64,000 nucleotides of DNA from an uncultured Gammaproteobacteria bacterium. Its GTDB lineage: Bacteria; Pseudomonadota; Gammaproteobacteria; Tenderiales; Tenderiaceae. The notes beneath the pieces were generated by a model. That model did not search any database. It saw only the letters and a list, made by a program, of their open reading frames with translations, and was not told where the DNA came from. The first letter of the stretch is position 1. Each line of letters starts with the position of its first letter. The position numbers and the translations under genes are program-made. This document shows, piece by piece, positions 21,153 to 21,698 of the stretch. Where the stretch lies: the NCBI GenBank assembly GCA_965602225.1, contig CBFCYE010000008.1, positions 7,053-71,052 of the forward strand, in the 5' to 3' direction.

Positions 21153-21698
21153 ATGCAATTGCCTCTGCAAATCACATTTCGCCACATGGACAAATCAGAA
21201 GCCATGGAGACAGCGATTCGCAAACGAGCAGCCCAGTTGGAACAATTTCATGATCACATCATAAGTTGCCGTGTGGTGATCGAGCCACAGAATCATCACA
21301 AACACAAAGGCAATCTGTTCGCTATTCATATCGACCTCAAAACCCCGGGCAAGGAGATCGTGGTCAGCCGCAACTCAGACCTACACCAGGCCAACGAAGA
21401 CGCCTATGTCGCCGTACGCGATGCCTTTGACGCCACCCGCCGCCAACTGGAAGATCATCACCGCCGCGAAAGAGGCAAGGTCAAAACCCATGAGGCACCA
21501 CCACTTGGCACCATCAGTATGCTGGTACCGGAGGAAAACTACGGCCGCATCGAAACACCGCTGGGCCGCGACATCTACTTTCATCGCAATAGCATCACTA
21601 ACGGCAAATTTGATGATTTGGAAGTCGGCACTGCTGTTCGCTTTAGTGAAGAAGATGGTGATGAAGGCCCACAGGCCAGCAATGTCAGCCTGATCTAG
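21153..21698 (+). CDS. hpf: ribosome hibernation promoting factor-like protein (HPF/RaiA N-domain plus a C-terminal small beta domain)
   Basis: The N-terminal ~110 aa align to HPF/YfiA (MQLPLQITFRHMDKSEAMETAIRKRAAQLEQFHDHI...). The C-terminal ~65 aa (GTISMLVPEENYGRIETPLGRDIYFHRNSITNGKFDDLEVGTAVRFSEEDGDEGPQASNVSLI) resemble both the long-HPF C-terminal domain and a cold-shock domain. A strong AAGGAG ribosome-binding site lies before ATG 21153. Confidence 0.7.
   Translation: MQLPLQITFRHMDKSEAMETAIRKRAAQLEQFHDHIISCRVVIEPQNHHKHKGNLFAIHIDLKTPGKEIVVSRNSDLHQANEDAYVAVRDAFDATRRQLEDHHRRERGKVKTHEAPPLGTISMLVPEENYGRIETPLGRDIYFHRNSITNGKFDDLEVGTAVRFSEEDGDEGPQASNVSLI

Follow-up and report, generated by a model that had tools for sequence, protein, structure and literature searches.

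The gene studied here lies in a 64-kb window of gammaproteobacterial DNA (the window being the whole stretch analyzed, 64,000 nucleotides) and encodes a new, somewhat divergent member of the known HPFcold family, in which an N-terminal HPF/RaiA (S30AE) domain is fused to a cold-shock domain (CSD) at the C terminus. Judged from its characterized homolog, the protein is probably a ribosome hibernation factor of the HPFcold class, acting on 70S monomers with its CSD on the 3′ end of 16S rRNA, which carries the anti-Shine–Dalgarno sequence (aSD).

An HPF/RaiA domain and a cold-shock-like C-terminal module had been proposed in a sequence-only reading of this DNA, and profile searches bear out both. 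PF02482 matches residues 5–106 with 59.9 bits (E=4e-16; gathering score, GA, 23.7) and PF00313 matches residues 119–180 with 43.1 bits (E=4e-11; GA 27), or 46.2 when the domain is taken by itself; at these E values, both matches are far beyond chance. In the AF2 model, the N-terminal domain has the topology β-α-β-β-β-α, with strands 5–9, 38–45, 56–64, and 67–73 and helices 16–32 and 84–106, and carries two loop insertions, a His-rich one at 46–53 and a second one at 74–81. The C-terminal domain is a five-stranded barrel (strands 118–125, 130–134, 140–144, 161–169, and 172–180; pLDDT 85–90), and the linker between the two domains is unstructured. Foldseek matched the domains, with a probability of 1.00, to RaiA/HPF structures (TM(target) 0.84–0.93) and to Csp structures (r.m.s. 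deviation of 1.4–1.8 Å), respectively; the overall confidence of the model is moderate (pLDDT 78, pTM 0.48) and the model is silent on ribosome binding. The best NCBIfam match of the N-terminal domain is TIGR00741 (HPF/YfiA), with 33.6 bits against a cut-off of 40.9. The short HPF/RaiA equivalogs NF007780 and NF007654 give 21.5 bits against 125 and 20.0 against 158, and the Csp equivalog models, which match the C-terminal domain best, give 14–30 bits against cut-offs of 111–152. Scores below the equivalog cut-offs are expected for a fusion protein.

The C-terminal segment had also been noted for a visual resemblance of its LGRDIYFHRN stretch to the LGhDFFxFRN core of long HPF, which would make the protein a divergent long HPF whose degenerate dimerization domain forms 100S dimers. 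The plain HPF-type labels borne by many database copies would agree with such an identity; Chan et al. report misannotation of this kind for Csp-HPF fusions without a dimerization domain, which are often taken for long HPF (bioRxiv 2025.11.04.686544). The domain and fold tests nevertheless refute this reading, to which we give almost no credence. PF16321 (Ribosom_S30AE_C) has no match at E≤10 in the whole protein or in its C-terminal 69 residues, against 43–46 bits for the CSD, and the 36 PDB sequences matched by these 69 residues at E≤10 are without exception cold-shock domains or HPFcold. PDB chains of long HPF align to the N-terminal domain only (phmmer), no long-HPF C-terminal domain appears among the 50 best fold matches listed by Foldseek, and the predicted fold of the segment is the Csp barrel described above. 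The Pfam and structure check set out beforehand thus gave a CSD above its gathering score, no PF16321, and a Csp-like C-terminal fold. Of the two options first offered, the long HPF of divergent sequence falls and the HPF-CSD architecture holds. The novelty claimed for the latter falls as well, as the architecture is already represented by PDB entries 9T0Z and 9TZE, by the fusions of Chan et al., and by thousands of database copies.

Chain 9 of these PDB entries is CBU_0020 of Coxiella burnetii (UniProt Q83FC0), named HPFcold (Stuart et al., Nat Commun 2026;17:7049, PMC13392368). A phmmer search of the PDB aligned residues 1–179 of the window protein to residues 6–179 of this chain, described as “Ribosome hibernation promoting factor” (9t0z_9/9tze, E=2.1e-42), and BLASTP gave 45% identity and 63% positives over 179 residues with a single 5-residue gap. 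For their family tree, Stuart et al. use as the criterion a PF02482 (S30AE/HPF) match that exceeds the Pfam gathering score (PMC13392368). Homologs of the window protein form 3849 clusters at 90% identity, from many phyla; among the best 120 of the 3849, 119 carry precomputed PF02482 and PF00313 and one carries PF02482 only. At 50% identity, 263 homolog clusters have E≤1e-30. The family occurs in at least 584 GTDB species genomes, and a GTDB genome scan based on family motifs matched by the window protein returned no match above 80% identity. Many database copies are labeled “HPF/RaiA family” or “ribosomal subunit interface protein.” HPF-CSD proteins are not treated in a study of hibernating ribosomes from four Gram-negative pathogens (bioRxiv 10.1101/2025.10.07.680626).

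In the ribosome-bound structure of HPFcold, the CSD binds the aSD, together with bS21 and uS7, on a 70S ribosome, and sequence conservation clusters on the aSD-binding face (PMC13392368). The mechanism that we propose draws on this C. burnetii structure for the binding to the ribosome, for the site at the aSD, and for the 70S state. Upon translation shutdown, the N-terminal S30AE domain would bind the 30S decoding center and fill the mRNA/tRNA path, and the linker would thread toward the platform. The C-terminal CSD would then sit at the mRNA exit side, holding the 16S 3′ end, and the ribosome would be stored as an inactive 70S monomer and not as a 100S dimer. For the window protein, 100S-dimer formation is probably the wrong expectation, since the characterized homolog is observed on 70S monomers.

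Table 1 Features of the HPFcold-type gene and its flanks, in window coordinates
Feature	Position	Strand	Remarks and evidence
Possible −10 promoter element, TATTAT	21113..21118	+	Weak, inferred; upstream conservation
Shine–Dalgarno sequence, AAGGAG	21139..21144	+	8 nt 5′ of ATG; read directly
CDS of HPFcold-type hibernation factor, stop codon included	21153..21698	+	181 aa; ORF list, homology, dN/dS
N-terminal HPF/RaiA domain (S30AE, PF02482), residues 5–106	21165..21470	+	Pfam, AF2, Foldseek
Linker with VKTH motif, residues 107–118	21471..21506	+	Invariant columns, alignment to 9T0Z chain 9, AF2
C-terminal cold-shock domain; RNP1 equivalent ENYGRI, RNP2 equivalent IYFHR, LEVG 156–159	21507..21692	+	Pfam, AF2, Foldseek
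Perfect 13-bp hairpin between convergent HPFcold and degQ-like genes	21704..21734		No U-tract on either strand

The reading frame is intact from ATG to TAG. The strong ribosome-binding site recognized in the sequence-only reading is present and its block is conserved: (A/G)GAGAGA does not vary in a four-way alignment of the upstream region with that of L083 (the ortholog from a vent metagenome), Ca. Tenderia electrophaga, and Tenderia sp. The relatives keep this block and the N terminus MQLPLQITFRH, the N terminus of the family being MQLPLQ, and an in-frame ATG at 21117, which would give a 193-aa version, is not conserved in Tenderia; the start is therefore placed at 21153. Farther upstream, the sole conserved stretches in the same alignment are a CCTAT(N)AT block and a CTRGYGRC block. 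The TATTAT hexamer is only a tentative −10 candidate, since a scan with the sigma-70 consensus detected nothing promoter-like upstream of the gene. A sigma-54 promoter in the conserved CTRGYGRC...TTGC region was considered by eye and rejected, as GG and GC are spaced by 10 and not 12 in Tenderia and the window sequence has no GG. Regulation in cis by an RNA, for instance a thermosensor like that of cspA, was likewise rejected: Rfam searches of the whole window at the gathering threshold and of 20750–21800 at E≤1 gave only a chance match of a miRNA model to the downstream hairpin.

That hairpin, and the monocistronic nature of the gene, had both been pointed out from the sequence and are upheld. 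The gene is preceded by a 341-nt gap and followed by a convergent degQ-like gene, and the hairpin between the two is real (stem arms 21704–21716 and 21722–21734; ΔG −28.3 kcal/mol; z=−6.4 relative to shuffled sequences). L083 retains the stem, GGCTGAGCAC/GTGCTCAGCC, but has another loop. Lacking a U-tract, the hairpin does not qualify as a canonical intrinsic terminator, and the terminator scan passed it over. The gene order hslU-hslV-Hpt/REC/GGDEF ... HPFcold - degQ (convergent) - nrdJ - TSCPD is common to the window and to Ca. Tenderia electrophaga CP013099. Among the window ORFs of at least 35 aa, phmmer searches with E. coli RMF, HPF, RaiA, and CspA matched only the HPFcold gene; accordingly, neither a second hibernation factor (RMF, short HPF, or RaiA) nor a stand-alone Csp was found within the 64 kb.

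The side chains named as rRNA contacts in Coxiella HPFcold are R123, F132, Y142, K155 (of KLEVG), and R177 (PMC13392368). One of the five, Y142, is kept in the window protein, which has M123, R132, D155, and N177 at the other positions and retains LEVG. Side-chain conservation is no part of the family definition of Stuart et al. and bears instead on mechanism. R177 and K155 are themselves not well conserved, being present in 11 of 127 and 39 of 121 diverse representatives, respectively. Surface conservation in a 121-sequence alignment of the subfamily is highest along the RNP face (Y/F130, G131, R/K132, Y142, F143, H144, R145, N146, and S147), which parallels the conservation on the aSD-binding face described for HPFcold (PMC13392368). 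Within it, YFHRNS is near-invariant, its Y, F, H, and S being fully so, and is intact in the window protein. R139, R145, and R163 are conserved at 90% or more in the subfamily; the Coxiella residues at these positions are E, A, and Q. The claim that the RNP1 and RNP2 aromatic residues are largely replaced goes too far. In a gap-free alignment to Listeria CspLA, three of the seven positions are replaced (W8 by M123, F17 by R132, and F30 by R145), while the equivalents of F15, F27, H29, and F38 are kept as Y130, Y142, H144, and F153.

Positions 123 and 132 covary across the subfamily. A basic residue at 123 occurs with F132 in 85 sequences and a non-basic one with R132 in about 82, Arg at both positions is never found, and 96 of the 98 sequences with R/K132 have a non-basic residue at 123. 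In the large Tenderia-type subfamily, the Arg of position 123 thus appears, from these alignments, to have moved to 132. Fitch counts on an NJ tree give 33 state changes for position 132 and 43 for position 123; such a tree, built from proteins of about 180 residues, is too noisy to prove that the covariation is independent of phylogeny, and the covariation may therefore reflect a few deep splits. Because the RNA-contact side chains of the subfamily are arranged differently (R132 in place of 123; R139, R145, and R163), the atomic details of RNA recognition likely differ from those in Coxiella.

These differences could go further and mean that the CSD of an otherwise HPFcold-type protein is re-targeted. 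The N-terminal domain would still block the decoding center, and the face formed by R132, R139, R145, and R163, without R123, K155, and R177, would hold the 16S 3′ end in another register or have a different single-stranded RNA as its target, for example the leader of an mRNA or some other part of the rRNA. The changes at four of the five Coxiella contacts, the subfamily-wide covariation with its many state changes, the three conserved arginines, and the GKHHIVG C-terminal tail, present in 73 of 87 R132-type and 14 of 114 F132-type sequences, all speak for such a change. We nonetheless consider it unlikely. Conservation still falls on the same face of the CSD, with Y142 invariant, and Arg is able to substitute for Phe in base stacking and to supply the hydrogen bonds of R123, so that, on the simplest reading, the site stays the same and the Arg has moved. 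Linker length and VKTH are also kept (K111 and H113 are invariant in the subfamily, and VKTH is present in Coxiella too), which keeps the distance between the CSD and the decoding center about the same; the weakness of the NJ tree bears on the state changes as well. Similarly, it seems improbable that the Tenderia-type subfamily, with R132 and a non-basic 123, YFHRNS, R139/R145/R163, and usually GKHHIVG, is a mechanistically distinct subclass of which the tail-less window form is a further functional variant.

The GKHHIVG tail is near-invariant in the subfamily (90% or more). The window protein and its 95%-identical relative P0001/L083 lack it, ending in ...NVSLI, and the window protein departs from further columns conserved at 90% or more, with H118 replaced by L, D137 by L, E161 by A, and T/S177 by N. 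Taken together, the missing tail and these substitutions would suit a decaying copy, a gene losing its function in the window lineage, which we hold to be very improbable. Indeed, the window gene and its ortholog L083 differ by 46 synonymous and 9 non-synonymous codon changes, which gives a dN/dS of 0.044 (NG86, 181 codons) between two lineages that are 11% different at the nucleotide level and share the truncated end. The window lineage is under strong purifying selection despite the tail loss. The intact reading frame and YFHRNS motif and the conserved ribosome-binding site and start context equally argue against decay, as do 14 other R132-type sequences that are tail-less too.

The added value for biology is modest but concrete. 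The unusual domain fusion was correctly spotted from raw sequence and has been recognized in the literature only in late 2025 and 2026. HPFcold is now placed in gammaproteobacteria of a free-living, Tenderia-like lineage, in which its chromosomal synteny is conserved. At the level of RNA contacts, the solved Coxiella protein does not stand for the family as a whole, as a large subfamily has Arg at 132 and not at 123, other conserved basic residues, and a conserved C-terminal tail, which the window lineage gave up while staying under strong selection. When the aSD-protection mechanism is generalized or mutants are designed, the Tenderia-type subfamily is worth sampling too.

Compared with Coxiella HPFcold, the window protein has the same two Pfam domains, PF02482 and PF00313, in collinear full-length alignment, no long-HPF C-terminal domain, and the same VKTH linker, Y142, LEVG (156–159), and glycines G131, G138, G169, and G172. 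It differs in having M, R, D, and N at positions 123, 132, 155, and 177 in place of R, F, K, and R, in its RNP1 (YGRI vs FGFI) and RNP2 (IYFHRNS vs FYFNAGN) segments, and in a loop 74–81 that is longer by five residues. The hosts differ as well, a free-living lineage of Tenderia-like chemolithoautotrophs, as inferred from the nearest genomes, versus an intracellular pathogen. The Csp-HPF fusions of Chan et al. belong to the same class, with a patchy distribution and frequent annotation as plain HPF (bioRxiv 2025.11.04.686544); theirs is a genomic survey without residue-level description, and the window gene is not carried on a plasmid but lies on the chromosome, in synteny with Tenderia. The Tenderia/Thiohalomonadaceae/Sedimenticola-type subfamily (57–80% identity) shares R132 with a non-basic 123, YFHRNS, R139/R145/R163, and the neighbors degQ, nrdJ, and hslVU, and the window protein differs from it by the missing GKHHIVG tail and by H118L, D137L, and E161A. 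The Ca. Tenderia electrophaga member (P0007) is annotated “30S ribosomal protein S30.”

Long HPF (PF02482 and PF16321; S. aureus, B. subtilis, L. lactis) likewise joins an S30AE domain through a linker to a second domain of about 60 residues, which is the PF16321 dimerization domain, whereas that of the window protein is a CSD barrel; the expected states would be 100S and 70S, respectively (PMC13392368). Short HPF and RaiA (YfiA) consist of a single S30AE domain of about 95–115 residues, whereas the window protein has a folded CSD after it. Stand-alone Csp proteins share the fold of the C-terminal domain, with 35–38% identity to Bacillus caldolyticus Csp over 64–65 columns, and are single domains of about 65–75 residues, whereas the CSD here is the C-terminal third of a 181-residue HPF fusion. 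In CspA and CspB, RNP1 reads K-G-F-G-F-I and RNP2 V-F-V-H-F; in the window protein, the RNP1 motif KGFGFI has become ENYGRI, and W8, F17, and F30 are replaced by M, R, and R.

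The product of the gene under study carries two domains that Pfam detects above their gathering scores: PF02482 (S30AE/HPF; residues 5–106, 59.9 bits against 23.7) and PF00313, the cold-shock domain (CSD; residues 119–180, 43.1 bits against 27; 46.2 bits when the C-terminal 69 residues are searched alone). PF16321, the C-terminal domain of long HPF, gives no Pfam match in the window protein even at E ≤ 10. With NCBIfam, the N-domain matches HPF/YfiA models and the C-domain Csp models, all far under the equivalog cut-offs, as expected for a fusion protein. When compared with all PDB sequences at E ≤ 10, the C-terminal 69 residues retrieve cold-shock domains and a single 'hibernation promoting factor' chain, and nothing else. 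An AlphaFold2 model based on 121 family sequences (mean pLDDT 78, 85–90 in the CSD blocks) shows a β-α-β-β-β-α fold followed by a five-stranded barrel. In Foldseek searches of the PDB, the N-domain superimposes onto RaiA/HPF structures (TM-score normalised to target 0.84–0.93) and the barrel onto Csp proteins of Bacillus, Salmonella, E. coli and Listeria (r.m.s. deviation 1.4–1.8 Å, 27–38% identity), while the long-HPF dimerisation domain is absent from the best 50 of the 67 matches at E ≤ 0.001.

The sequence-only reading had hesitated between a divergent long HPF and an HPF-CSD fusion; its observation was correct, and the fusion, the better of its two alternatives, is right. The LGhDFFxFRN-like segment that had suggested a long-HPF core is the CSD's own RNP2 strand (IYFHRN), and the proposed comparison of PF02482, PF16321 and PF00313, together with the fold prediction, came out opposite to a canonical long HPF. 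Because the CSD is matched, PF16321 is not and the modelled barrel has a Csp fold, a divergent long HPF is effectively refuted and retains next to no probability. The S30AE domain also contains an inserted His-rich loop, for which the subfamily consensus is HxHHHKG and conservation of H47 and H49 reaches at least 90%. The loop may be connected with the conserved patch reported to bind Mg in Coxiella HPFcold (PMC13392368), or with metal or pH sensing.

The architecture, which had been thought possibly novel, is abundant and has already been published, with its structure solved. Searching the PDB with phmmer returned a full-length match (query 1–179 to chain residues 6–179, E-value 2.1e-42) to the 183-residue 'Ribosome hibernation promoting factor' 9t0z_9/9tze, and BLASTP aligned the two proteins at 45% identity with a single 5-residue gap. 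This protein, Coxiella burnetii CBU_0020, was named HPFcold (Stuart et al., Nat Commun 2026, PMC13392368). Its PF02482 domain is located in the 30S decoding centre and its PF00313 domain lies on the mRNA exit side, bound to the anti-Shine-Dalgarno 3' end of 16S rRNA, held in a pincer by bS21 and in contact with uS7. In the authors' argument, this shields 70S monomers against RNase attack in a bacterium that has no RMF, RaiA or long HPF; they report the fusion from every proteobacterial class and several other phyla (PMC13392368). Independently, Chan et al. described HPF isoforms without the dimerisation domain, fused to Csp, SigE or CBS domains, frequently mis-annotated as long HPF and spread via horizontal transfer (bioRxiv 2025.11.04.686544).

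A word-indexed search yielded 3849 clusters at 90% identity. Among the best 120 of these (57–95% identity), precomputed PF02482 and PF00313 assignments occur together in 119, the sole exception (cluster P0079) having PF02482 alone; among the names in the source records are 'HPF/RaiA family ribosome-associated protein', 'ribosomal subunit interface protein' and 'cold shock CspA family protein/ribosome-associated translation inhibitor RaiA'. When the 50% representatives were searched exhaustively, 263 clusters matched at E ≤ 1e-30, and scanning GTDB species genomes for motifs led to at least 584 confirmed loci, distributed over Gamma-, Alpha-, Beta- and Deltaproteobacteria, Nitrospirota, Methylomirabilis, Planctomycetota and Acidobacteriota. 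By HPFcold identity, the closest genomes belong to Candidatus Tenderia sp. (80%) and to Ca. Tenderia electrophaga (77–78%); the closest sequence overall (95%) lies on a hydrothermal-vent metagenome contig of 1.8 kb (L083).

The open reading frame had been placed exactly, and the strong ribosome-binding site noted before it is present. The start is set at 21153, because MQLPLQITFRH is the N-terminus in relatives and the upstream in-frame ATG is not conserved in Tenderia. Monocistronic transcription is the natural reading, with 341 nt to the upstream gene and a convergent degQ-like protease gene downstream. The downstream hairpin is also real (dG −28.3 kcal/mol, z = −6.4); it has no U-tract and the terminator scan made no call there. 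Its stem, GGCTGAGCAC / GTGCTCAGCC, is kept in the 83%-identical vent contig (about 1360–1390) with a different loop, and Tenderia has a canonical terminator, a GC-stem and T-run, at this position instead. A sigma-70 consensus scan found no promoter for the gene. The conserved upstream block does not look like a sigma-70 −35 consensus or a correctly spaced sigma-54 element, and may be a site for an alternative sigma factor or regulator. No Rfam family (tRNA, rRNA, riboswitch or sRNA) reached the gathering score anywhere in positions 1–64000, and the 5' region of the gene contains no known RNA element in Rfam.

Coordinates of the HPFcold gene, its flanking signals and other features in the window
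Feature	Position (strand)	Description
Variable-slot ORF	19699-20811 (+)	370 aa, between the Hpt-REC-GGDEF and HPFcold genes; no Pfam family at E ≤ 1e-5
Upstream block	21092-21118	CTRGYGRC-N(~17)-CCTAT(N)AT, conserved in 4 Tenderia-type loci (upstream DNA alignment columns about 140-172)
TATTAT	21113-21118	possible -10 element, within the conserved CCTAT(N)AT block
Second in-frame ATG	21117	would add 12 residues
Shine-Dalgarno	21139-21144	AAGGAG, 8 nt 5' of the ATG
HPFcold gene	21153-21698 (+)	ATG to TAG, 181 aa
His-rich loop	21288-21311	QNHHKHKG, residues 46-53; model pLDDT <50
Intergenic hairpin	21704-21716 / 21722-21734	13-bp perfect stem, between convergent genes
Ribonucleotide reductase	23591-25744 (+)	717 aa
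Very long ORF	40148-44002 (-)	1284 aa

Gene order around HPFcold matches that of T. electrophaga CP013099: hslU, hslV, Hpt-REC-GGDEF, a variable slot, HPFcold, the degQ-like protease (convergent), a ribonucleotide reductase of class II type and a TSCPD protein. The window accordingly derives from a Tenderia-related gammaproteobacterium, in which the HPFcold gene is a stable chromosomal resident. The slot is called variable because it holds different genes in the two otherwise syntenic regions, with ATP sulfurylase, a histone-deacetylase-like gene, DUF5996 and a hydrolase in T. electrophaga. The T. electrophaga ribonucleotide reductase (10471–13755 of its locus) has 1094 residues with Intein_splicing and LAGLIDADG_3 domains; the window copy appears intein-free. 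No other S30AE, RMF or CSD gene was found in the 64-kb window.

The Tenderia-type subfamily, whose features include R132 and a non-basic residue 123, ends in a tail, GKHH(I/V)(V/A)G, at least 90% conserved (columns 191–197 of the 121-sequence alignment). Near-invariant as GKHHIVG, it is found in 73 of 87 R132-type proteins versus 14 of 114 F132-type proteins; neither Stuart et al. nor Chan et al. describe a role for it. The window protein has lost this tail: like its 95% relative, it terminates in ...NVSLI, a Gly codon having become TAG, and compared with Tenderia 9 nt are missing ahead of the old 'GGCTGA'. At four further positions both carry residues atypical of the subfamily: L/Y for H118, L for D137, A for E161 and N for T/S177. 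A decaying copy would account for such losses and is nevertheless very improbable, being contradicted by the substitution pattern. Of 546 nucleotides, 60 are different between the two genes, with 46 synonymous and 9 non-synonymous codon changes. The dN/dS ratio (NG86, two genes) is 0.044 for the whole gene, 0.016 for the N-domain and 0.071 for linker and CSD together, which indicates from sequence comparison that the tail-less form is a maintained, functional gene.

The canonical nucleic-acid-binding residues established for CspB and CspA are W8, F15, F17, F27, H29, F30 and F38. In a gap-free alignment with Listeria CspLA, F15, F27, H29 and F38 are kept as Y130, Y142, H144 and F153, and W8, F17 and F30 are replaced by M123, R132 and R145. 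The RNP1 and RNP2 aromatics, described from sequence alone as largely replaced, are indeed partly altered, two of the residues to Arg; 'largely' overstates a change at three of seven positions.

In Coxiella HPFcold, Y142 stacks on U1534 and F132 on C1535, R123 forms a pseudo-pair with C1535, R177 bridges two backbone segments and K155, of the KLEVG motif, is inserted into helix 40 (PMC13392368). The numbering of the two proteins is identical from residue 103 onward; only Y142 and the LEVG sequence are kept in the window protein, and M123, R132, D155 (before LEVG) and N177 replace R123, F132, K155 and R177. The changes are not private to it: among the 121 closest sequences, 91 have R or K at position 132, most have E, Q, V or L at position 123, Y142-F143-H144-R145-N146-S147 is invariant or almost so, and conservation of R139 and R163 is 90% or higher. 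Among 127 diverse 50%-identity representatives, by comparison, F132 occurs in 109 and R/K123 in 84. Positions 123 and 132 covary sharply over 247 sequences (basic 123 with F132, 85; non-basic 123 with R132, about 82; R with R, 0), residue 123 being non-basic in 96 of 98 R/K132 sequences, and a rough NJ tree implies many state changes. We infer that the cytosine-reading Arg, on strand 1 of the barrel in Coxiella, has been relocated to strand 2, and that the face binding RNA is kept yet rewired. A re-targeted CSD would also fit the altered contacts, and we consider it unlikely.

Our analysis shows the two domains, their folds, homology and selection, and membership in HPFcold is almost certain. 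By homology with 9T0Z/9TZE, the overall mechanism quite probably holds: the N-domain would block the A/P-site and mRNA path, the CSD would hold the 16S 3' end, and ribosomes would be stored as 70S monomers. The atomic details of RNA recognition are uncertain, since the contact side chains differ from those of Coxiella and lineage-specific changes, including the tail loss, are added. Judged from its sequence, the window protein is an additional HPFcold, from a subfamily that departs from the solved protein in its RNA contacts and whose conserved GKHHIVG tail, absent from Coxiella HPFcold, it has lost.
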